DNA of 64,000 bases from Thermodesulfobacteriota bacterium (GTDB lineage: Bacteria > Desulfobacterota_D > UBA1144 > Nemesobacterales > UBA2774). The DNA is taken from NCBI GenBank assembly GCA_035325995.1, contig DAOKYU010000008.1, forward strand, positions 6,897 to 70,896, read 5' to 3'. Of the stretch, positions 4,104 through 62,021 are shown one piece after another (position 1 is the first letter of the stretch; every line of letters begins with the position of its first letter). The translations under genes were made by a program, and so were the position numbers. The notes beneath the pieces are model-generated. The model was not told where the DNA came from. It made no database searches and saw only the letters and a program-made list of their open reading frames with translations.

Positions 4104-5116
4104 TTAGGGAAGCCATAGCCAAGCTCGTCGAGCGTATAGACCTCGAAGAAGACGAAATGTCCGAAGTCATAGAGACCATGATGGAGGGCGAGGCGACGCC
4201 CAGCCAGATATCGGCATTCCTCGCGGCCCTCAGGATGAAGGGCGAATCCGTCCCCGAGATCACGGGGGCGGCGAAGGTGCTCCTCGACAAGGCCACCCGC
4301 ATATCTTCGGGGCACGACGTCGTGGTCGACCTCTGCGGCACGGGCGGAGACAGCCAGGGGACGTTCAACGTCTCCACGGTCGCCGCGCTCGTAGTCGCCG
4401 GCGCGGGGGTCCCCGTGGCGAAGCACGGGAACCGCTCCGTTTCGAGCTACGTCGGAAGCGCCGACGTCCTCGAAGCGCTGGGCGTCGATATAACCCCCTC
4501 CCCCGAAATCGCCGAGAGATGCCTCCGCGACGTCGGCATCGTATTCCTCTTCGCGCCCCTTTATCACCCGGCCATGAAGAACGTGTCCGTTCCCCGGAAA
4601 GAGATCGGCATCAGGACCATATTCAACATCATCGGCCCCATCGTAAACCCGGCGGGCGTAAAGCACCAGGTGATCGGCGTATATTCCGAGGTCCTCCTCG
4701 ACCCGATGATAAAGGTCCTCCGCAACCTCGGCCACAAGGGCGCTATGATAGTCCACGGCTCGGATTCGATGGACGAAATCACGGTCACGGGCAAGACGGT
4801 CATCGCCGAGCTCAAGGACGGCATGGTAAAGAAATTCCAGTTCGATCCTACGGAGATAGGAATTAAAAAGAGGAACATCGCCGAGCTCAAGGGCGGAAAG
4901 ACGGCCGAGGAAAACGCGACCCTCCTCGTTTCTATTCTCAAGGGCGAGGAGAGGGAAGCCAAGAGAGACATAGTTCTCCTGAACGCGGCAGCCGCGATTT
5001 ACGTCTCCGGCACGAGCCCCGACTTCGAAGATGCGCTCGGCCGTGCGGCCGAATCCATAGACTCGGGTAAGGCCTACGCCAGGCTCGAAGGGCTCATAAA
5101 GGCTACGCATAATTGA
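4100..5116 (+). CDS. trpD: anthranilate phosphoribosyltransferase
   Basis: GTGGDSQGTFNVSTVAALVVAGAGVPVAKHGNRSVSS glycine-rich PRPP motif. Overlaps the nusB stop by 4 nt (ATGA). Confidence 0.9.
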   Translation: MIREAIAKLVERIDLEEDEMSEVIETMMEGEATPSQISAFLAALRMKGESVPEITGAAKVLLDKATRISSGHDVVVDLCGTGGDSQGTFNVSTVAALVVAGAGVPVAKHGNRSVSSYVGSADVLEALGVDITPSPEIAERCLRDVGIVFLFAPLYHPAMKNVSVPRKEIGIRTIFNIIGPIVNPAGVKHQVIGVYSEVLLDPMIKVLRNLGHKGAMIVHGSDSMDEITVTGKTVIAELKDGMVKKFQFDPTEIGIKKRNIAELKGGKTAEENATLLVSILKGEEREAKRDIVLLNAAAAIYVSGTSPDFEDALGRAAESIDSGKAYARLEGLIKATHN

Positions 5117-5126
5117 ATCATCGACA

Positions 5127-5936
5127 GTGAGCTTGAATAAAATGGCCACAGGAACGATCCTCGACACCATAATCGAAAACACTCGCATCGAAGTCGCAGA
5201 GGCCGGAAAGTCCCTTCCCCTCGAAAGCCTCTCCCGTCTTGCGCAGTCTTCCCCGGCGCCGCGCGATTTCGCCTCGGCCATAAGCCCGTCCCGCGGGCTC
5301 AGGATTATCGCCGAGATAAAGCACGCCTCGCCCTCCAAGGGCATATTCAGGGAGGATTTCGACCCTGTCGCGATAGGAAAGGGGTACGAAGCAGGCGGCG
5401 CTTCCGCGCTTTCCGTGCTCACCGACAGGAAATTCTTCAGGGGCAGTCTCGACTATCTCGAAGCCGTCAAAAAAGAAGTCTCGATACCTCTACTCAGGAA
5501 GGATTTCATTATCGATCCTTACCAGGTCTATGAGGCCAGGGTGCGCGGTGCGGACGCGATTCTCCTCATAGTCGCGGCGCTGGAGCAGAGCCTCCTCGTC
5601 GAGCTCCAGACGCTCGCACGCGCGCTCGACCTCGGCGTTATGGTCGAGGTGCACGACGAAGCCGAGCTCGAAAGGGCCCTTTCGGCCGGGAGCGACATCG
5701 TCGGCATAAACAACCGCGACCTCCGGACGTTCGAGGTCGACCTCGGCGTTTCCGAAAGGCTGTCGCGGATGATACCCGGCGGTGTAACCATAGTGGCCGA
5801 AAGCGGCATATCTTCCGGAAACGACATCAAGCGGCTCCGGGACGAAGGCGTCCACGTCTTTCTCATAGGCGAGACGTTCATGAAAGCGCCCGTCCCCGGC
5901 GAAGAGCTCGGGAAGCTCATTCGGGAATCCTTATAA
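5127..5936 (+). CDS. trpC: indole-3-glycerol phosphate synthase
   Basis: IIAEIKHASPSKG...LLRKDFIIDPYQVYEARVRGADAILLIVAAL...GINNRDLRTFEVDL is the IGPS signature. Confidence 0.9.
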   Translation: MSLNKMATGTILDTIIENTRIEVAEAGKSLPLESLSRLAQSSPAPRDFASAISPSRGLRIIAEIKHASPSKGIFREDFDPVAIGKGYEAGGASALSVLTDRKFFRGSLDYLEAVKKEVSIPLLRKDFIIDPYQVYEARVRGADAILLIVAALEQSLLVELQTLARALDLGVMVEVHDEAELERALSAGSDIVGINNRDLRTFEVDLGVSERLSRMIPGGVTIVAESGISSGNDIKRLRDEGVHVFLIGETFMKAPVPGEELGKLIRESL

Positions 5937-6049
5937 TTTCAGTCCGCGTACGATGCCGCCTCGCGGCCGCATCCTGCCTTTTCCCTCTTTCCGATACTCC
6001 CGGCTGCCGCCGTTTTGTATAACTCAAAATCCGTATATATTATTGCTTC

Positions 6050-6373
6050 ATGACAGACGAAGCGCCCGTAAAGAAAAAAAGTCCCTTGATCGCCCTGGTG
6101 CTCTCGGGGTTCGTCCCGGGGTTCGGCCAGTTATACACCCGCCAGCCGCTGAAGGGCATAATTCTCCTGGTTCTCTACATAGCCATTACCGTCCTCGGCT
6201 TCGAGCCGTTCCAGACGGTTTTTCAGGCGGTTACGGCCCCCGAAACGGCGGTTCAGGACAAGAAAGCCTTCATTCTTTTTTTCATCTACACCATGGCGAC
6301 CCTGGTCCTTCTTCTCTACGCAATGTTCGACGCGTTTTCGAGGGCGAACAAGATCAACTCCGGCGCGGGGTAA
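6050..6373 (+). CDS. small membrane protein, two predicted TM helices (TM2-domain-like)
   Basis: 107-aa ORF with two hydrophobic helices and a GxGQLY motif. Its own promoter-like region lies upstream. Family assignment is uncertain. Confidence 0.4.
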   Translation: MTDEAPVKKKSPLIALVLSGFVPGFGQLYTRQPLKGIILLVLYIAITVLGFEPFQTVFQAVTAPETAVQDKKAFILFFIYTMATLVLLLYAMFDAFSRANKINSGAG

Positions 6374-6397
6374 AAAGATTCTCTTTTACGTCCCCGG

Positions 6398-6430
6398 CAT
6401 CTTGACAATCGTCCGCTGTAGACATTATTA
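6398..6430 (+). promoter_or_regulatory. sigma70-like promoter upstream of the RND efflux operon
   Basis: TTGACA at 6398-6403, then 16-17 nt, then ATTATT/TATTAT. Sits about 90 nt before the outer-membrane-factor gene. Confidence 0.3.
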
Positions 6431-6520
6431 TTTCGTATATTTTTCGGGCTGTTTCCTATAAAGGATCAGGAGGAGGATCTCCTGTAATTCCCATCCATTT
6501 AGAGTTCGCTGGAGACCTAA

Positions 6521-13342: not shown

Positions 13343-15811
13343 TTACTTGTAGATTGTGAGGCTCACGCCGGGCGTAAGCTCGGCCGAGTTCAGGTTGTTC
13401 CACTTCTTGATGCTCGCGACGGATACGTTGTGCCTGTTGGCTATGGCCCAGAGCGTGTCGCCCTTTTTCACTTTATAACTAACCACGTCGCTCGCGGAGC
13501 CCGACGAAGAAGAGCCGCCGCCCGGAATCACCAGCGTCTGTCCCGACCTTATCGTATTGCCGCTTATGTTGTTGGCACTCCTGAGCGAGGCGACCGACAC
13601 GCCGTTCCGGGAGGCGATCCCGCTGAGCGTGTCGCCCGACTTGACGGTGTATCTGGAAGAAGAGCTGGAACCTCTGGTGCTGGTCGCGGCGACGCTCGAA
13701 GAACCGCTCCCCGCGCCCGGGATCGTCAACACCTGACCGCGCTGTACAATCGTGCCCCTGAGGTTGTTCGCGCTCTGAATGGATGCCATGGATACGCCGT
13801 GCATCTGTGCTATCTTACCGAGTGTATCACCTGCCTGTACTCTGTACGTCCCGGAGCTGCCGGTGCTCGATGCGCGCTCGACAGGTGCGCTCGCCACTGC
13901 CTGCGAGGAAGACGAAGAGCCCGGAATGGTCAGCTTCTGCCCCCTCTTTACCACGGTCCCCCTCATGTTGTTGGCGCTCTGTATGGAAGACATCGAAACG
14001 CCGTGCCTCGCCGCTATGCCGCTCAGCGTATCGCCCGGCCTTACCGTATATTTCGTGGCTCCCCTCGAAGACGAGCTCGACGCCGAAGAACCGCTGCTCG
14101 CCGAATCCGCATAAACCGCCCCGCTGCCCGCTATGTAGGGGATCGTAAGCTCCTGGCCCGCCATTATCGTCGAGCCCCTGAGCCTGTTCGCCTTCTTTAT
14201 CGTGGAAACGCTTACGTTGTACCGCGACGCTATTGCACCCAGCGTATCGCCGGGCTTCACCCTGTAAGCGGTAGTTTTCGTTATAGCCGTTCCGCCCGAC
14301 GGCGTGTCGTAGTAGCGTCCCGAGGCTCCCGGTATCGTCAGAACCTGTCCGGGCCTGATGAGCGAGCCTCTCATGTTGTTTGCGCCCTTTATCGAGCCTA
14401 TGCTAACCCTGTGCCTGGCCGCAATCGCCCCGAGCGTGTCGCCCCTTCTGACGGTGTACCTCGCGGTAGACGTGGCGTTCTGCGAGCCGGACGAGGTCGA
14501 GGCCGTGCTTACGGAGCCCTTGAGCCCCGGTATTACGAGTGACTGCCCGACCATGATAGTCGAGCCCCTCATGTTGTTGGCCCTCTTTATGCTCGAAACG
14601 CTCACCCCATAGCGCCCGGCTATCTTCCCGAGTGTCTCGCCCCTTCTGACCTTGTGCCTTCCGGCCACAACGGTGCTCCTCTGCGCTATGGACGGGCTAA
14701 CGTCCGCAAGCGCATAGAGCTCCTTGGTCTTGCCGAGGGCGACGGCCGAATAACCTTTCGGCACGTTGATGTCGTACGGTCCGCCCGGGGGCGTCGCATT
14801 GAGCAGTATCGCGGGGTTGAGCTCGACGAGCTTGTAATGGCTTACGCCTATCACCCTCGCTATGTCGCTAAGGCTCTTCTGCGGGGGGACCCTTACGGTC
14901 TCGAAGTATTCCGGCTCGTGATAATCGATGCCGACGAACCCGTATTTCTCCGGGTTCTTCGCAATTATCAGCGCCGCCATAAGCTTGGGTACGTAGTTCT
15001 TCGTTTCGGTCGGAAGCGTGTATTCCGATATCTGCCAGAAATCGTTTATCTGATACTTGTCTATCGCGGCCTGCACCCTGTCCTCGCCGCAGTTGTATCC
15101 GGCCGCCGCAAGCTCCCACGACTGGAACATCGCGTAAAGGTCGCTCAGATAATCCGCCGCGGCCTTCGTCGATTTCTTCGGGTCCCTTCTCTCGTCGACC
15201 CATGCGTCCACCCTGAGCCCGTACCTTATCGCCGTCGGCTTTATGAACTGCCACGGCCCCACGGCGGCGGCGTGCGATTCGGCCTTCACGTTAAACCCGC
15301 TCTCTATCATCGCGAGATAAACGAGGTCCGTCGGCATTCCCCTCTCGGCCAGGATCGCGCTCATGAGCGGTATGAATCTGCCCGAACGCTCGAGCCATAT
15401 GCTGAACGATCTCCGCCCCTGGTTCTGGAAGTAAACCATGTAGTGCATGACCCTCTCGTTAAGCACTACCGGTATCTCGTTCTCCGTTTCGGGTACGACG
15501 TCCGGGAACTGCTCGAAAATGGTCTCTACGTAGTAGTATGTCTTCCAGCCCTGTATCTGCGGGTTAAGCATGAAAAAGCTCGACCTCAGGTCGTCCGCCT
15601 GCGAGGGCGAAGGCGAATATTCATCGACCATCTTTATGTCGGGGTGTTGCCCCCCGCTTTCGACGTCGATTCCCGGCATTGCTGACTGGGTTCTTTTCGG
15701 AGTGACAGATTTGCTTCCGCATCCTATTAGGACAAATGAAAGAGCGGCAGTAAGGAGTAAATACCTGTAAAACATTGGCTTTTTTTTATCATATTTCGAG
15801 ACAAATGTCAA
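13343..15811 (-). CDS. mltD: membrane-bound lytic murein transglycosylase D-like lipoprotein with 7 LysM domains
   Basis: Lipobox LIGC|GS; an SLT domain (ESGFNVKAESHAAAVGPWQFIKPTAIRYGL); then seven LysM repeats (YTV+xGDTLxxIAxRxxVS...L...N). Confidence 0.88.
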   Translation of the reverse strand: MTFVSKYDKKKPMFYRYLLLTAALSFVLIGCGSKSVTPKRTQSAMPGIDVESGGQHPDIKMVDEYSPSPSQADDLRSSFFMLNPQIQGWKTYYYVETIFEQFPDVVPETENEIPVVLNERVMHYMVYFQNQGRRSFSIWLERSGRFIPLMSAILAERGMPTDLVYLAMIESGFNVKAESHAAAVGPWQFIKPTAIRYGLRVDAWVDERRDPKKSTKAAADYLSDLYAMFQSWELAAAGYNCGEDRVQAAIDKYQINDFWQISEYTLPTETKNYVPKLMAALIIAKNPEKYGFVGIDYHEPEYFETVRVPPQKSLSDIARVIGVSHYKLVELNPAILLNATPPGGPYDINVPKGYSAVALGKTKELYALADVSPSIAQRSTVVAGRHKVRRGETLGKIAGRYGVSVSSIKRANNMRGSTIMVGQSLVIPGLKGSVSTASTSSGSQNATSTARYTVRRGDTLGAIAARHRVSIGSIKGANNMRGSLIRPGQVLTIPGASGRYYDTPSGGTAITKTTAYRVKPGDTLGAIASRYNVSVSTIKKANRLRGSTIMAGQELTIPYIAGSGAVYADSASSGSSASSSSSRGATKYTVRPGDTLSGIAARHGVSMSSIQSANNMRGTVVKRGQKLTIPGSSSSSQAVASAPVERASSTGSSGTYRVQAGDTLGKIAQMHGVSMASIQSANNLRGTIVQRGQVLTIPGAGSGSSSVAATSTRGSSSSSRYTVKSGDTLSGIASRNGVSVASLRSANNISGNTIRSGQTLVIPGGGSSSSGSASDVVSYKVKKGDTLWAIANRHNVSVASIKKWNNLNSAELTPGVSLTIYK

Positions 15812-15958
15812 TTTGGGCGTATGTCCCTTTAAGTATTTTTCTTAAATTTTTCAGAATGGGGCAAAAACTATATTCAATTATTTCAGGGCCTTGCGCTTTT
15901 CACGGGCAAAGCTTAAGAAATTCCTCTATCTATGCCCCGGAATCCGGTAAAAATACAC

Positions 15959-17221
15959 CTAATATACCGCCTGTGAAAAATAGCTTTTAAATTCGGCCGG
16001 TTTCATGTTCGCGGCCCTGGCGAGAGCGGCCAGTTTTTTCCTGTCCGTAAGGTCGTCTTCCCTCAGTTTTATCATGTACCTGTCCGCCACTTCATAGGCT
16101 TCCGTCCTGACGTCGACGAACCTTATCCTGGCCCTGTCCTTAACGGGGTCTATCATCTCCGAAAAGTCTATAGGCACCATTTTTCCCGTCTGGATGGTTA
16201 TGAGCGCCCCCGTGCCGCCGCCCATGAGGAACTTCACGGCGCTGTACCCGAGCTCCCGGGTGTACTTGGCGTCGAACGGAATAGGCGGGGCCGACCTCAG
16301 CTCGTACCCTATCACCTTGTCTATTACCCTTACGTCGATACCCTTTTCGGAGAGGGCCTTCATCGTCCTCTCCTTCAGGAACTCGCCGATATCCACCTCG
16401 GACAGCCTGAGGCGTCCGAACTCGTCCCTCTCCAGGTCCTGCAGCTCCTTTAAATCCTCCTCGTCGAGCTTCTCGGTAAGCCCCTCTGCGAGTATGGCGA
16501 CCCCGTCCGTCCTGCCCATGGCGAGCCTCTTGATTATCGCCCCTTCGAGCTTCGTAACCAGCTTCGAGAGCCTTACCTTCCCCCTCCCGAACTCCTCGGG
16601 TATCACGGTCAGCGTCGCGCCCGACGCCTTCCCGATCCCGAGCGCCAGGTGCCCGGTGAGCCTCCCCATCGTCACGACGAAATACCACCTCCCCGTGGTC
16701 TTCGCATCCTCCATCAGGTAATGGACGAGCCTCGTCCCTATGTGCCGGGCGGTCTCGTATCCGAACGTCGGAATATACGACGGTATAAGGATATTGTTGT
16801 CTATGGTCTTCGGCACGTGCGCGACCCTCAGCTTTCCCCCGGCCGCCTTTTCGAGCTTGTTCGCGAGACACATCGTCCCGTCCCCGCCGACGGTTATCAC
16901 GTACCCGACACCGAGCCCGAATAGTCCCTTCAGCGTATTTCTCATCCTCTCGGGAGAAGTCGTCGGGTTCGCCCTCGAGATGCCTATTATCGAGCCGCCC
17001 GTGTGGTGTATCCTCGAAGTGTTGTGGATGCCCAGCTTCTCCACGTGCGTCGCGTCCCCCTCGGCCAGCCACTTGAACCCGTCCCTTATCCCCACGACCT
17101 CGACGCCCCTGTTCGCGGCCTCTATGGTCGCTGCGCTTATGACGCCGTTTATACCCGGCGCGGGGCCTCCGCCTACGACTATCGCGATGCGTTTTCCCGT
17201 TTTCCTTTTAGCGTGAGCCAT
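15959..17221 (-). CDS. pfk: 6-phosphofructokinase (group III, possibly PPi-dependent)
   Basis: KRIAIVVGGGPAPGINGVISAATIEA...ITVGGDGTM...PKTIDNN are the PFK motifs. 420 aa. Confidence 0.85.
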   Translation of the reverse strand: MAHAKRKTGKRIAIVVGGGPAPGINGVISAATIEAANRGVEVVGIRDGFKWLAEGDATHVEKLGIHNTSRIHHTGGSIIGISRANPTTSPERMRNTLKGLFGLGVGYVITVGGDGTMCLANKLEKAAGGKLRVAHVPKTIDNNILIPSYIPTFGYETARHIGTRLVHYLMEDAKTTGRWYFVVTMGRLTGHLALGIGKASGATLTVIPEEFGRGKVRLSKLVTKLEGAIIKRLAMGRTDGVAILAEGLTEKLDEEDLKELQDLERDEFGRLRLSEVDIGEFLKERTMKALSEKGIDVRVIDKVIGYELRSAPPIPFDAKYTRELGYSAVKFLMGGGTGALITIQTGKMVPIDFSEMIDPVKDRARIRFVDVRTEAYEVADRYMIKLREDDLTDRKKLAALARAANMKPAEFKSYFSQAVY

Positions 17222-32987: not shown

Positions 32988-33016
32988 TTGCCTAACCCGC
33001 TCATAAAAAGTATAAT
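32988..33016 (+). promoter_or_regulatory. sigma70-like promoter (TTGCCT-17-TATAAT) for the AAA+/VWA operon
   Basis: TTGCCT at 32988-32993 and TATAAT at 33011-33016, about 95 nt before the AAA+ start codon. Confidence 0.4.
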
Positions 33017-33109: not shown

Positions 33110-33946
33110 ATGAGATTCGAAGGCACGGAAAATTATATCTCGACGCGGGACCTTAACCTCGCCGTAAACGCTTCGATAACACTTCAGCGCCCGCTCCTCA
33201 TAAAGGGCGAGCCCGGCACGGGCAAGACGATGCTCGCGTTCGAGGTGGCCGAGGCCCTCGGAAAGGAGCTCATCACGTGGCACGTAAAGTCCTCGACGAC
33301 GGCGCAGCAGGGGCTCTACGAATACGACGCCGTCTCCCGACTCCGCGATTCCCAGCTCGGGGACGACAGGGTCAACGACATCGCGAACTATATAAAGAAA
33401 GGGAAGCTCTGGGAGGCTTTCGAATCCGAAGAGCAGATAGTGCTCCTCATCGACGAGATCGACAAGGCGGACATCGAATTCCCTAACGACCTTCTGTTAG
33501 AGCTCGACCGCATGGAGTTCTACTGCTACGAGCTCCGAAAGACCATAAGGGCCAGGGAGCGCCCGATAATCATCATCACGTCCAACAACGAAAAGGAGCT
33601 CCCCGACGCATTCTTAAGGAGATGCTTCTTCCACTACATCAGCTTCCCCGACAGAGAAACGTTAAAGGCCATAGTAAAGGTTCACTACCCGAAGCTCGAA
33701 GGGAAGCTCATCGAAAACGCCATGAATATCTTCTACGACCTCCGCGAGATCGACGGCCTCAAGAAGAAGCCCTCGACGAGCGAATTAATAGACTGGCTAA
33801 AGCTCCTCATGGTCGGGAAGATCACGGAGTCCGAGCTCGGCGCGGTGGATCTCTCCGAAAGCCTTCCGCCCTACGCGGGCGCGCTCCTAAAGAACGAGCA
33901 GGACCACGACCTCCTTTCCCGCATCAGGCTCAGGTTCAGGCGCTGA
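33110..33946 (+). CDS. MoxR-like AAA+ ATPase (AAA_5; CoxD-like)
   Basis: Walker A GEPGTGKT, Walker B LLIDEIDK, sensor/arginine-finger region. About 280 aa, typical of CoxD/MoxR-type chaperone ATPases. Confidence 0.85.
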   Translation: MRFEGTENYISTRDLNLAVNASITLQRPLLIKGEPGTGKTMLAFEVAEALGKELITWHVKSSTTAQQGLYEYDAVSRLRDSQLGDDRVNDIANYIKKGKLWEAFESEEQIVLLIDEIDKADIEFPNDLLLELDRMEFYCYELRKTIRARERPIIIITSNNEKELPDAFLRRCFFHYISFPDRETLKAIVKVHYPKLEGKLIENAMNIFYDLREIDGLKKKPSTSELIDWLKLLMVGKITESELGAVDLSESLPPYAGALLKNEQDHDLLSRIRLRFRR

Positions 33947-33992
33947 TACAGGCCGCCGTAGGCGGGCGCAATTCGATTCACGAAGGTGAGAA

Positions 33993-35195
33993 ATGTTTCT
34001 CGACTTTTTTCTGCTTCTTAAAAACGACGGCATACCGGTAACCATAAAGGAGTACCTCACCCTCCTCGAAGCGCTCGACGAAGGCATAGGCGAGTACAGC
34101 GTGGACGATTTCTACTACCTCTCCCGCACGTCCCTCATAAAGCACGAGCATCACCTCGACAGATTCGATCTCCTCTTCGGCTATTTCTTCGAAGGCGTCG
34201 AAAAAATAGACACCGAGGAGTTCATGAAGATACCCGAGGAATGGCTCAGGAAGAGCTTCGTCAACGCGCTTACGGACGAAGAGAAGGAGCTCATAAAAGG
34301 GATGGGCGGCCTCGACAAGCTCCTTGAGCGCCTGAAGGAATTAATGAAGGAGCAGAAGAAACGCCACGAGGGCGGTGGCAAGTGGATAGGCACGGGAGGC
34401 ACGTCCCCCTTCGGCGCCTACGGTTACAACCCCGAGGGCATCAGGATAGGGCAGGACGAGAGCCGCCACAGAAGGGCGGTCAAGGTGTGGGACAAGCGCG
34501 AATTCAAGGACCTCGACGACTCCGTCGAGCTCCAGACGAGGAACATGAAGATGGCCCTCCGCCGCCTCCGCATACTCACACGCGAAGGAACTTCGGAAGA
34601 GCTCGACCTAGATAAAACGATAGACAAAACGTCGCGCAACGCCGGCTTTCTCGAGATCGAAATGGTCCCGGCGAAAAAGAACAACGTAAAGGTTTTACTC
34701 TTCCTCGACATCGGCGGCTCGATGGACGATCATATCGAGCTGTGCTCGCGCCTCTTCTCCGCAGCAAAATACGAGTTCAAGCATCTTGAATACTACTACT
34801 TCCACAACTGCCTCTACGAATTCGTCTGGAAGAACAATAAAAGAAGGTGGCAGGAAGCGATACCCACGTTCGAGGTTTTCAACAAGTACAACAGCGACTA
34901 CAAGGTCATAATCGTGGGCGACGCGTCGATGTCTCCCTACGAGCTCCTGTATCAGAACGGCAGCGTCGAGCACAACAACGACGAGGCCGGCTTCGTCTGG
35001 CTCGACCGCCTGAAGACCCGCTACCCCGACATCGTCTGGCTCAACCCCGTCCCCGTCCCGCAGTGGAAATACACCGAGTCCATAGGCATGGTCAAGCAGT
35101 TCATGAACGACCGCATGTTCCCGCTGACGCTCTCCGGCCTCCAGAAAGCCATCCGCGCGCTCAAAGACAGAAAAATCAAATTCGAAGGGCATTGA
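33993..35195 (+). CDS. VWA domain protein (CoxE-like)
   Basis: CoxE-type N-terminus (MFLDFFLLLKNDGIPVTIKEYLTLLEAL) and a C-terminal VWA domain with the DxGxS MIDAS-like motif (FLDIGGSM). Usual partner of MoxR/CoxD ATPases. Confidence 0.8.
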   Translation: MFLDFFLLLKNDGIPVTIKEYLTLLEALDEGIGEYSVDDFYYLSRTSLIKHEHHLDRFDLLFGYFFEGVEKIDTEEFMKIPEEWLRKSFVNALTDEEKELIKGMGGLDKLLERLKELMKEQKKRHEGGGKWIGTGGTSPFGAYGYNPEGIRIGQDESRHRRAVKVWDKREFKDLDDSVELQTRNMKMALRRLRILTREGTSEELDLDKTIDKTSRNAGFLEIEMVPAKKNNVKVLLFLDIGGSMDDHIELCSRLFSAAKYEFKHLEYYYFHNCLYEFVWKNNKRRWQEAIPTFEVFNKYNSDYKVIIVGDASMSPYELLYQNGSVEHNNDEAGFVWLDRLKTRYPDIVWLNPVPVPQWKYTESIGMVKQFMNDRMFPLTLSGLQKAIRALKDRKIKFEGH

Positions 35196-35197
35196 CT

Positions 35198-35623
35198 ATG
35201 ACTTTTCCCACTTTAGACAATATTGTCGCTGTGTTGGGATTATTAGGAATTGGGGGAATCATAGGGAATTATGTTCGAATTCTGTTGGAAAGAAAAAACC
35301 AAGCCCAATTACAGAAACAAGAATTTAAGGAAACTCGATATAAGTGTATTGTTCTGCTTATGTATGCTTCGTTAGATTTTGAAAAAGAAATACACAATCT
35401 CAGAAAGCATGGTCGCGATTTTGCTTCTTATGAAGAATTAATGGAAGAACTAAAAACTGAATGGTACAACATGATTCTATTTGCTTCTGACGAAGTTCTC
35501 AGAACAACTCATGCTTTTATTTTAAATCCTTCGGTTTCATTGTTTAAAAATACCGTGTTGGCGATGCGAAGGGATCTTTGGGGCGGGAAACTTTCTGAAG
35601 ATCTTATTGATCTCAAGTTTTAA
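35198..35623 (+). CDS. hypothetical small membrane-anchored protein (compositionally atypical)
   Basis: 141 aa (MTFPTLDNIVAVLGLLGIGGIIGNYV...): one N-terminal TM helix, then a soluble domain. Starts 2 nt after the VWA stop. Markedly AT-rich with different codon choice (TTA/ATT/GAA/AAA) from its GC-rich neighbours. Confidence 0.55.
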   Translation: MTFPTLDNIVAVLGLLGIGGIIGNYVRILLERKNQAQLQKQEFKETRYKCIVLLMYASLDFEKEIHNLRKHGRDFASYEELMEELKTEWYNMILFASDEVLRTTHAFILNPSVSLFKNTVLAMRRDLWGGKLSEDLIDLKF

Positions 35624-35667
35624 ATCGTGTCCAAATAAAAAATCAATGTACTGTTCATAATCGGCAA

Positions 35668-36126
35668 ATGATCCTCTCAATCGACCTCATCAACTTCGTA
35701 GTCTCCGACCTCGAAAGGTCAGTCAGGTTCTATACAGAGCTACTCGGGTTCCATGAATCGAAGCGCGCGCATCTGGAAGGCGACTGGATAGAAAAGATAG
35801 TGGGACTCAAAGGCGTCGTCGCCGACGTCGCCTTCATAATCGCGCCCGCGGGCGAGCCCCGCATCGAGCTCCTCTGCTATAAAACCCCCTCGGGTGAATC
35901 GATACCCGCAAACTCCCTCGCCAACACTGTCGGCATCCGGCACATAGCCTTCAGGGTAGACGACATTCACGCAGCCGCCCGGAAGCTCAAAGACGCCGGG
36001 GTAAAGCTCCTCGGCGACCCGGTCATCGTCCCCGAAACCGTCGTCACGCACGACGCCGGCCACAAGATGCTCTGCTACTTCCACGACCCCGACGGCATCC
36101 TTCTCGAAATCACCGAGTATAAATAG
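35668..36126 (+). CDS. VOC-family (glyoxalase/bleomycin-resistance/dioxygenase fold) protein
   Basis: Two beta-alpha-beta-beta-beta modules (LIDLINFVVSDLERSVRFYTELLGF...HIAFRVDDIHAAARKLKDAGVKLL). Confidence 0.7.
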   Translation: MILSIDLINFVVSDLERSVRFYTELLGFHESKRAHLEGDWIEKIVGLKGVVADVAFIIAPAGEPRIELLCYKTPSGESIPANSLANTVGIRHIAFRVDDIHAAARKLKDAGVKLLGDPVIVPETVVTHDAGHKMLCYFHDPDGILLEITEYK

Positions 36127-46242: not shown

Positions 46243-47316
46243 TCAGGAATACGCCGCCTGTTTCAGGATTTCGGTCTGGTAATAGGCCGTCAGGGCATCG
46301 ACCAGCTCGTCGAGCTCCCCGTTCAGTATAGCCTCTATCTTATATAAGGTAAGCCCGATCCTGTGGTCCGTTATCCTGCCGTCCCTGTAGTTATAGGTCC
46401 GTATCTTCTCGCTCCTGTCCCCCGTACCGACGAGGCTCTTTCTCGCGCTGGCTATCTCGTTCCTCCGCTTCTCCTCTTCCATCTCGTAGAGCTTCGCCCG
46501 GAGCATCCTCATCGCGTGGGCCCTGTTCTTGTGCTGAGACCTCTCGTCCTGGCACTGTACGACTATTCCCGTCGGGAGGTGCGTTATCCTTATCGCCGAG
46601 TCGGTCTTGTTCACGTGCTGCCCGCCCGGCCCGGACGCCCTGTAGGTGTCGATCTTGAGCTCCTTCTCGTCTATGTCCACCTCTACCTCGTCCGGCTCGG
46701 CAAGGATCGCGACCGTGGCGGTGGACGTATGGATCCGCCCGCTGGTCTCCGTGGACGGCACCCTCTGCACCCTGTGCACGCCGCTCTCGTACTTCATGCG
46801 GCTGTAGACGTTCTTCCCCTCTATCGCGGCCACCACTTCCTTTATCCCGCCTATGCCCGTCTCGCTTATGCTTATCACCTCGACCTTCCACCTTCTGGCC
46901 TCGGCATACTTCGAGTACATCCTGAAGAGGTCCGCCGCGAACAGGGCCGCCTCGTCGCCGCCGGTGCCGGCCCTTATTTCGAGGAAGACGTTTTTTGCGT
47001 CGTTAGGGTCCTTCGGCAAGAGCAGTGTCCTGAGCTCGTTTTCGAGCCGGGCCAGCTCTCCCTCCAGCTCCTCGAGCTCCTCGCGCGCAAGCTCCCCGAG
47101 GTCCCTGTCCTTCAGAAGGGCCCTGTTCTCCTCTATTGTTTCGAGCGTTTTCTTATAGCTCCTGTACGTCTCGACTATCTCGTCGAGGTCCGAAAGTTCC
47201 TTGGAATACTTATGAATTTCCGTCGGACTGATGTCGGGACTGTTTAAATTTCGCTCTATTTCGAGGTACTTTTGCTCGACTTCCTCGAGCCGCTTGAGCA
47301 TACCGGTTTCTGGCAT
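46243..47316 (-). CDS. prfA: peptide chain release factor 1
   Basis: GGQ motif ([19 protein letters not shown]) and an RF1-type PxT tripeptide (PST). Confidence 0.95.
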
Positions 47317-47385
47317 TTCAGCCTAATATCATCACACATCTTGCATAAATTTCAAGATAAGATTAAACTTGTGATGTGTAAGACA

Positions 47386-47595
47386 ATGGAAACAATGGAT
47401 ATTCTAGAAGGCAAAATCAAAGAGGCTTTGTCGAGGAAAACAAAGCTCGAGGTGGAGCATAAAAACCTACTTGAGGAAGTGTCGAAACTCAGGGATAGTG
47501 TGAAGAAACTGGAAAAGGAAAGAGACGAAATAAGGCAGAAGCTCGACAGGGTTATAGAGAAGGTCGAGATATATTTGAGCAGGTCAGAGGCATAG
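47386..47595 (+). CDS. zapB: ZapB-like coiled-coil cell division protein
   Basis: 69-aa all-coiled-coil protein (METMDILEGKIKEALSRKTKLEVEHKNLLEEVSKLRDSVKKLEKERDEIRQKL), directly upstream of zapA. Confidence 0.55.
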   Translation: METMDILEGKIKEALSRKTKLEVEHKNLLEEVSKLRDSVKKLEKERDEIRQKLDRVIEKVEIYLSRSEA

Positions 47596-47596
47596 G

Positions 47597-47959
47597 TTGA
47601 AGCGTCTTAAAATAAAGTTTTTCGACATCGAGTATTTCATTAAAACAGATGCCGAAGAGAGTTACGTTCAGGAGATAGCTTCTTATCTCGAACAGAAGAT
47701 AAAGGAAATCTCCGGCCAGGAGGGCGGCGCCGCCGTGCCCAGGCCGGTTTTGCTTGCCATGCTGAAGATTACAGACGATTACTTCAAGCTACTGAAGGAC
47801 TTCAAGGAATTTAAAGAAAGTGCAGAAGAGAGATCTAACAGATTGGTCAAAATATTGGATAACTCCCTCAACGATAAAGAAACATTCGGTTTGGACGAAG
47901 GCGTTCTTAGAGAAGGGCTCGGAAGAGAAGAGCTGGAAGACTCGTATAAATACAGATGA
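47597..47959 (+). CDS. zapA: cell division protein ZapA
   Basis: KIKFFDIEYFIKTD..SYVQEIASYLEQKIKEI...RPVLLAMLKITDDYFKL is the ZapA fold pattern. 120 aa. Confidence 0.7.
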   Translation: MKRLKIKFFDIEYFIKTDAEESYVQEIASYLEQKIKEISGQEGGAAVPRPVLLAMLKITDDYFKLLKDFKEFKESAEERSNRLVKILDNSLNDKETFGLDEGVLREGLGREELEDSYKYR

Positions 47960-61944: not shown

Positions 61945-62021
61945 TGGTCGGGGTGGCCGGAATCGAACCGGCGACCCTCGGCACCCCATGCCGATGCGCT
62001 ACCAAGCTGCGCTACACCCCG
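61945..62021 (-). tRNA. tRNA-Pro (anticodon GGG)
   Basis: 77-nt cloverleaf read on the minus strand: acceptor CGGGGTG/CACCCCG, D-arm GCGC-AGCTTGGTA-GCGC, anticodon arm TCGGC-AT GGG GT-GCCGA, T-arm GCCGG-TTCGATT-CCGGC, discriminator A, encoded CCA. Confidence 0.85.

Follow-up and report, generated by a model that had tools for sequence, protein, structure and literature searches.

A small AT-rich gene of an unannotated protein family in a variable slot behind a MoxR-VWA gene pair

Does a gene placed two nucleotides (nt) behind a MoxR-VWA pair belong to that pair? The question is raised by a 141-amino-acid (aa) open reading frame (ORF), which we call X141, in a 64-kb stretch of contig DAOKYU010000008.1 (the window, abbreviated W, throughout). 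The host is a Thermodesulfobacteriota metagenome-assembled genome related to Candidatus Dadabacteria. X141 starts with an ATG at 35198, directly behind the TGA (35193-35195) of a CoxE-like VWA gene, which itself follows a MoxR-type AAA+ gene on the same strand at a distance of 46 nt. The initial annotation, made from the letters of the sequence, had these three ORFs and the 2-nt gap right; it proposed that X141 is a laterally acquired, membrane-anchored third component of a MoxR-VWA system or, alternatively, a lowly expressed orphan. The placement makes a tempting case of guilt by adjacency, which our analysis corrects, as standing 2 nt behind the pair does not make X141 one of its components. 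With moderate confidence, we instead favor a reading in which X141 is an independent AT-rich gene that occupies a variable slot outside the MoxR-VWA system, is probably expressed by read-through and may encode a conflict-type effector.

A conserved gene in a variable slot

X141 is compositionally the most unusual gene of the window. Its GC content of 0.35 is the minimum of the whole 64 kb (mean 0.568, standard deviation 0.048 in 426-nt windows), and GC at third codon positions (GC3) is 0.30, compared to 0.73-0.82 in confident host genes. With 32 host genes as the training set, the codon-adaptation index of X141 is 0.252, compared to 0.685±0.031 (minimum 0.59) for the host genes. The conspicuous AT-richness described in the initial annotation was therefore confirmed, also against the two other AT-rich genes that it had named for comparison: X141 is far more extreme than the zapB-like ORF (0.43) and zapA (0.445). 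These two genes, at 47272-47959, are moderately AT-rich (GC 0.42-0.43, GC3 0.53-0.55, codon index 0.43-0.45); the first is a coiled-coil ORF with weak ZapB and PspA matches, and the second matches zapA with an E value of 2e-13. The low GC continues past the X141 stop codon, again as first described, into a spacer in which we found neither a terminator nor an attC-like site. The left edge of the AT-rich insert is the VWA stop, and its right edge, which is not sharply defined, lies about 20 nt past the X141 stop. An in-frame GTG at 34847 was ruled out as an alternative start, since every homologue begins at ATG.

X141 is a real, functional gene under strong purifying selection. Two relatives, L034 and L035, carry it at the same site, and the ratio of nonsynonymous to synonymous divergence (dN/dS) is 0.06 against L034 (93% aa identity) and about 0.09 against L035 (77%). 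The protein belongs to a large family, for which a single-sequence search returned 145 clusters, an exhaustive HMMER scan 239 representatives at 50% identity and a search with a 98-member profile 610 clusters. Nearly all members are stand-alone proteins of 136-150 aa. Among the matches listed, none has a Pfam domain and all are unnamed or “hypothetical protein” except for one JGI “DUF1330” label. Members share 50-65% identity across more than 12 phyla, and their distribution is patchy, with only 33 loci in 185,579 species genomes. The phyla of these loci include Nitrospirota, Nitrospinota, Planctomycetota, Omnitrophota, Elusimicrobiota, Cyanobacteria, Gamma- and Deltaproteobacteria, Acidobacteriota and Saccharibacteria; members from Verrucomicrobiota and Bacteroidota were obtained from additional loci outside this set. 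Given some 600 clusters and strong purifying selection, the idea of a lowly expressed orphan did not hold up. The family is better described as unannotated, conserved and solitary AT-rich cargo that some gene callers skip. In two ENA assemblies of the same organism (contigs L131 and L132), the interval 4204-4675 is uncalled though the DNA spacing is identical to that of the window. We discarded the strain polymorphism that these contigs seemed to show, as they do contain the gene, and conclude that some gene callers miss AT-rich genes in a GC-rich genome. Antisense ORFs inside X141, seen in nine loci and absent from the window, were likewise set aside as a by-product of sense-strand conservation.

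The initial annotation had also proposed one N-terminal transmembrane (TM) helix followed by a soluble domain, and both predictions agree with this. Kyte-Doolittle hydropathy peaks at residues 5-30, marking a single hydrophobic N-terminal helix, and an AlphaFold2 model with a predicted local distance difference test (pLDDT) score of 88.8 is all-helical, with a long helix at residues 6-59, hydrophobic in its first part, and then a compact helical bundle. The N-terminus has no positive charge, and the segment after the TM helix holds seven K/R against three D/E, so the bundle should be cytoplasmic (N-out). The positive-inside rule is thereby satisfied, and it also holds in the multi-TM fusion P0152, which is consistent with the same topology. 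Within the TM helix, G19 is invariant and G17 and G20 are kept in at least 90% of members; the remaining invariant or near-invariant residues of the family are R47, Y48, K49, C50, E88, S97, R124, D126, W128 and G129. P0152 and P0130 are both fusions to extra TM modules, and we found no counterpart of these additional regions near other family members. P0159 proved to be a spurious match. We predict that X141 is an N-out protein in which one glycine-rich TM helix is followed by a cytoplasmic four-helix bundle.

As first noted, the protein has no recognizable motif. Searches of Pfam, NCBIfam, PADLOC, PHROGs and PDB sequences returned only noise, whether X141 was used alone or as 29 or 98 family members, and no profile of PADLOC-DB v2 matched at E values up to 1. 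The bundle has a generic resemblance to four-helix-bundle sensors (Tsr/Tar, NarQ, QseE; 4HB_MCP), with Foldseek E values of 0.6 or worse. In those sensors the bundle is periplasmic and lies between two TM helices, whereas that of X141 is predicted to be cytoplasmic, and X141 has no second TM helix, signaling module or sequence-profile match to them.

Relatives of the host share the gene order HtpG-cupin-AAA+-VWA...glyoxalase-PurU with the window and differ in what lies between the VWA and glyoxalase genes. L034, whose VWA protein is 97% identical to that of the window, has X141 2 nt after the VWA stop, as in the window itself. The VWA protein of L046, one of the two closest relatives of the window, is also 97% identical, and here the gap is empty, the glyoxalase gene following directly after a 29-nt spacer. 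L035 (86% over the C-terminal 159 aa) has a 27-nt spacer, X141 and then a DUF433/PIN_10 toxin-antitoxin pair, and L044 (85%) has an unrelated 210-aa ORF of GC3 0.20 whose ATG comes directly after the VWA TAA. In L045 (85%), an AT-rich spacer is followed by a truncated X141-like ORF of 54% identity, on a contig that ends before any glyoxalase gene and so leaves the right flank unconfirmed. The flanks are thus conserved, the content differs and the cargo is distinct from the host in composition. We conclude that this gap is a variable slot: among close relatives, it may contain nothing or different AT-rich cargo.

Conserved flanks around changing foreign cargo are also the mark of genomic islets and of integration hot spots with defense or toxin-antitoxin cargo. 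The slot described here differs from these in its single-gene scale (about 450 bp), in having no integrase, tRNA, repeat or element boundary, and in that its cargo begins only 0-2 nt behind the upstream stop codon. It represents a single-gene variable slot in Dadabacteria-like genomes. Two of the other cargoes deserve a description. The DUF433/PIN_10 (DUF5615) pair of L035, at 1000-1608 between X141 and the glyoxalase gene, has a GC content of 0.40, compared to 0.51-0.56 in the flanks; as it joins X141 there, the slot can gather several cargo genes. The 210-aa ORF of L044 (4204-4836) has a GC content of 0.30, and its GC3 compares to about 0.46 in its host. It contains an RNFLAH (Rx4H, HEPN-like) motif and has no Pfam, PADLOC or PDB match.

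Elsewhere in the family, X141 is not found with the MoxR-VWA pair. Searching 450 kb with the AAA+ and VWA proteins of the window (tblastn) located the pair at none of 46 other family loci. The VWA protein is itself strongly conserved and widespread, matching at least 600 stretches in a metagenome scan; an X141-like sequence accompanies just one of the best 80 of these (56-97% identical) and is missing from the other 79. No neighboring ORF is conserved across the 33 genome loci, and the sole common synteny is that of three related Planctomycetes. We conclude that X141 has no conserved gene partner and is not part of the MoxR-VWA system.

Age, arrival and AT-richness

The synonymous divergence (dS) of X141 is 0.62 to L034 and 1.41 to L035, and its flanks give 0.47-0.67 and about 1.9, respectively. 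For the VWA gene, the window, L034 and L046 form a near-equidistant trio (0.44-0.59), with L035 outside at about 1.9. Because the dS of X141 matches that of its flanks and the trio has this topology, the simplest history is that X141 was present before L035 split off and was lost in L046. Judged by these divergences, X141 is an old resident of this site whose acquisition was not recent. The 29-nt spacer of L046 was considered as a remnant of such a deletion and rejected, its similarity to X141 being non-significant (P = 0.31 versus shuffles).

Because the family is patchy and the site is empty in L046, X141 very likely entered this lineage laterally, as the initial annotation had suggested from its foreign composition. 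There are no terminal direct or inverted repeats flanking the insert in the window, and the family loci have no flank DNA in common. The low GC is widespread in the family: the GC3 of X141 is below that of its host in 30 of 33 loci, with a mean difference of -0.11 (Wilcoxon p = 1e-5), and the two values correlate across loci (r = 0.67). In 28 of 35 loci, the tract of low GC has the size of a gene (at most 700 nt), which together with the depressed GC3 indicates that a family gene is typically a one-gene islet. We read X141 as stand-alone mobile cargo.

The foreign composition could also be a feature under selection. It is possible, though we think it the lesser chance, that AT-richness is actively maintained, for example by using rare codons to throttle the translation of a harmful protein. 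Such maintenance would account for a GC3 that stays at 0.29-0.36 in the window, L034 and L035 despite flank-like synonymous divergence, for a family that is AT-richer than its hosts at nearly all loci and for a codon-adaptation index as low as 0.25. However, polarized synonymous changes number 14 from AT to GC versus 8 from GC to AT, and the per-site AT-to-GC rate is about equal to that of flanking host genes, so that slow amelioration from a very AT-rich donor fits equally well. Some members have a GC3 of 0.18-0.22, and family GC3 also tracks host GC3.

Expression, proposed role and alternatives

Because X141 has no room for a promoter, begins 2 nt after the VWA stop and is not preceded by a terminator, its expression probably depends on read-through and translational coupling. 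Between the promoter-like site at 32988 and position 36126, we found no terminator-like site on the + strand. Transcription would proceed together with the AAA+, VWA and glyoxalase genes from the host operon, for which the promoter-like site is the likely promoter. Translation would be coupled to VWA termination, and the very poor codon adaptation would keep the protein level low. An apparent regulatory hairpin over the start codon (inverted repeat I1) was dismissed, as it rests on a TTCGAA palindrome and folds no better than shuffled sequence (z -0.67).

The company that X141 keeps across the family is varied. Outside the host lineage, it stands by itself at operon ends, some of them those of restriction-modification, SoFic or DISARM-like operons and others those of nuo, hemB or hypF. 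In 26 of 30 loci, its upstream neighbor has the same orientation, often less than 50 nt away. Among the defense or mobile neighbors are SoFic (L012, L013, L015), a DNA methylase with a Schlafen-like gene (L014, with the same layout in L016), a Type I HsdR 12 nt downstream (L027), a DrmD-like helicase with a type III methylase (L043) and ParE, as well as an integrase (L124) and an IS110 transposase (L128). Others are housekeeping genes, namely hemB (L038, L128), nuoF (L125) and HypF (L004). By a count made with no matched control, defense, toxin-antitoxin or mobile-element genes lie within two genes of X141 at about 10 of about 35 independent loci, and the rest are housekeeping. No conserved two-gene pair, as expected of a type II toxin-antitoxin system, was seen across the 33 loci.

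Two of these neighborhoods are of interest in themselves. In a contig from Verrucomicrobiia (L126, Ga0427940_0000036, 5325-6463), an ORF6N gene (PADLOC candidate PDC-S05, E 6e-49) and an X141 homologue lie together between nuoF and nuoG of the NADH dehydrogenase operon, with nuoG beginning 3 nt behind the X141 stop, and L127 has the same layout; the two genes are accessory cargo within an essential respiratory operon. In a Phycisphaerae locus (L004, 6431-6781), the gene directly downstream of the X141 homologue encodes a “23S rRNA-intervening sequence protein” (a bAvd-like four-helix bundle), a small family known for scattered solitary copies.

The conserved glycine-rich TM helix, the TM fusions, the company of toxin-antitoxin, restriction-modification, SoFic and DISARM genes, and a slot shared with other AT-rich cargo lead us to suggest, tentatively and with low confidence, that X141 is a stand-alone conflict- or defense-type membrane effector. 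In this reading, the bundle on the cytoplasmic side would serve as a sensor or a restraint, and the glycine-rich helix would oligomerize and thereby disturb the membrane, in the manner of abortive infection or exclusion. X141 resembles single-gene, membrane-anchored abortive-infection and defense effectors in being a small stand-alone gene with a TM helix, patchy in distribution and AT-rich. It also resembles genes embedded in restriction-modification operons, such as PrrC in type I loci, as it is sometimes found within or behind restriction-modification, SoFic or DISARM-like operons (L027, L014, L043, L012-L015). It differs from known defense effectors in that it matches no PADLOC family and that most of its loci lie outside defense islands. 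The role is the weakest step of our explanation.

Several observations weigh against reading X141 as mobile conflict cargo expressed by read-through. Its flank-like dS marks it as old at the site, and such long retention fits a host-beneficial housekeeping role equally well. Neither a transfer vehicle nor an element boundary was found; phage and plasmid collections gave no match to X141, and IMG/VR gave one (L043). Only about a quarter to a third of the independent loci have defense-type neighbors, many others being purely housekeeping (nuo, hemB, hypF), and as a rough estimate the enrichment is not statistically secure. It is spacing, and only spacing, that suggests co-transcription and translational coupling, and the local RNA fold around the X141 start is unremarkable, with the z of -0.67 given above.

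A more specific proposal, which we consider doubtful, is that the family constitutes a new anti-phage or anti-plasmid system made of one membrane-acting protein, in which the bundle is a sensor that controls oligomerization of the TM helix and which spreads as a promoterless one-gene unit. An as yet undescribed insertion route, independent of any integrase, would fix such a unit immediately after the stop codons of operons in its hosts, including essential operons such as nuo. Should a defense function be demonstrated for the family, it would add a very compact single-gene system and raise the question of how single ORFs get placed behind operon stop codons.

The main alternative to an effector is a small membrane protein that benefits the host, for example by modulating membrane or respiratory complexes or helping to assemble them, and that is ancient and often lost. 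It would lie within operons because of its work with membrane machinery. The genomic company offers some examples: X141 lies inside the verrucomicrobial nuo operon and next to nuoF in L125; it adjoins hemB in both L038 and L128, whose HemB proteins are 55% identical; a cytochrome b gene is just downstream of it in L038; and COX1 adjoins one other family locus. Identity between hosts is also like that of housekeeping proteins (48% for X141 versus 52% for NuoF, and 55% for both X141 and HemB), and retention under strong purifying selection has been long. Against this stand the extreme rarity of the family, the lack of any neighbor conserved across phyla, the gene-sized AT-rich islet in most hosts and the absence of X141 from the same site in a close relative, L046. 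By our estimate, the nuo and hemB coincidences are about what chance would give over some 45 loci, and in L126 X141 arrived together with the ORF6N gene. We therefore judge a host-helper role unlikely.

With regard to arrival, X141 could be a gene cassette dropped at a secondary (attG-type) site by an integron integrase, as these enzymes are able to place cassettes away from att sites (bioRxiv 10.1101/2022.09.11.507474). Like integron cassettes, X141 is a small, promoterless, AT-rich one-gene unit directly behind another gene. We scanned for attC sites by pattern and fold (R''-L''...L'-R', ending GTTRRRY) and found no attC-like R''/R' pair after the stop codon, either in the window or at 35 of 36 family loci. 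Just 44 nt separate the X141 stop from the next gene, the genes that flank X141 are housekeeping genes, and the lack of flanking repeats and of shared flank DNA among loci speaks against this route as well. We consider it quite improbable. The single exception is an uncultured Nitrospira (L008, CABVRR010000070.1), which carries an 87-nt attC-like element (GCCTAAC...GTTGGGC) 6-93 nt after the X141 stop with a folding energy (dG) of -24.5 kcal/mol; this one copy may be an integron cassette.

The third-component hypothesis, in which X141 is a laterally recruited, membrane-anchored effector or adaptor that works with the MoxR-VWA pair, fares worse still. MoxR-vWA ternary conflict systems do exist, and in their arrangement of a MoxR AAA+ gene beside a vWA gene and then a third gene on the same strand they look like the window; their defining third components are VMAP, iSTAND, FtsH and beta-propeller proteins (Kaur, Burroughs, Iyer, Aravind 2020, PMC7159879). 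X141 directly adjoins the pair and shares its strand and probably its transcript, and this arrangement is kept in L034 and, with the longer spacer, in L035. However, its predicted TM helix and four-helix bundle correspond to none of the defining components, and the pair of the window is of the widespread CoxD/CoxE-like type with host composition. The hypothesis is largely refuted by the distribution of the genes, as none of the 46 other family loci has the pair, 79 of the best 80 VWA loci do without X141, L046 has the pair without X141, and L044 carries unrelated cargo in the same slot. The initial annotation had itself named homologues that are common without a linked pair as grounds for rejection, and this is what the family shows. 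We give the hypothesis very little chance. Finally, the omission of X141 from the ENA gene calls and its lack of a family annotation might suggest that an AT-rich spacer here contains a frame open by chance, or a dead pseudogene, a notion refuted by dN/dS values of 0.06-0.10, hundreds of full-length homologues with invariant motifs and a confident fold prediction (pLDDT 88.8).

Features of the locus

The features discussed above are collected in Table 1, in which the Pfam matches bear out the AAA+ and CoxE-like VWA identities given in the initial annotation.

Table 1. Features at and around X141, in coordinates of the window.
Feature	Coordinates	Strand	Basis and remarks
Likely operon promoter	32988..33016	+	Best sigma-70-like match, TTGCCT-17-TATAAT, 10/12; upstream of AAA+ gene
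MoxR-type AAA+ ATPase, 278 aa	33110..33946	+	Pfam AAA_5/AAA (E 4e-12); NCBI “MoxR family ATPase” HML95984.1; GC3 0.81
CoxE-like VWA protein, 400 aa	33993..35195	+	Pfam VWA_CoxE (E 3.9e-7); GC3 0.79, host-like
AT-rich one-gene insert, approximate extent	35196..35645	+	GC profile; comparison with empty L046, L034 and L035
X141	35198..35623	+	NCBI HML95986.1 “hypothetical protein”; predicted single-pass membrane protein of an unannotated family; low dN/dS, homologues
X141 predicted TM helix, codons 8-26	35219..35275	+	Glycine-rich, NIVAVLGLLGIGGIIGNYV; hydropathy, flanking charges, conservation, model
X141 predicted cytoplasmic helical bundle, codons 27-137	35276..35608	+	Motifs QKQEFKETRYKC, LDFEK, ELKxEWxNMILFASDEVL, AMRKDLWGGK
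AT-rich spacer, X141 stop to glyoxalase ATG	35624..35667	+	44 nt, GC ~0.32 by direct count
Glyoxalase/VOC family gene	35668..36126	+	Pfam Glyoxalase; GC3 0.77, host-like; conserved right flank of slot

The AAA+ protein has a partial match to the NCBIfam “MadB family AAA-type ATPase” (E 5.5e-35, 121 bits versus a 475-bit cutoff) and weak matches, in the P-loop only, to IetA/IteA anti-phage ATPases. These are not enough to place it in a defense family.

Two further features of the window lie away from X141. A second AT-rich dip at 15571-16177 is centered on a gap of about 150 nt between the minus-strand genes 13343-15811 and 15959-17221. It contains a 71-aa ORF (15775-15990, GC 0.35) with no family match, and is probably an AT-rich intergenic or promoter region. 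The only tRNA gene of the window, which is also its only Rfam match, is at 61948-62021 on the minus strand and is unrelated to X141.

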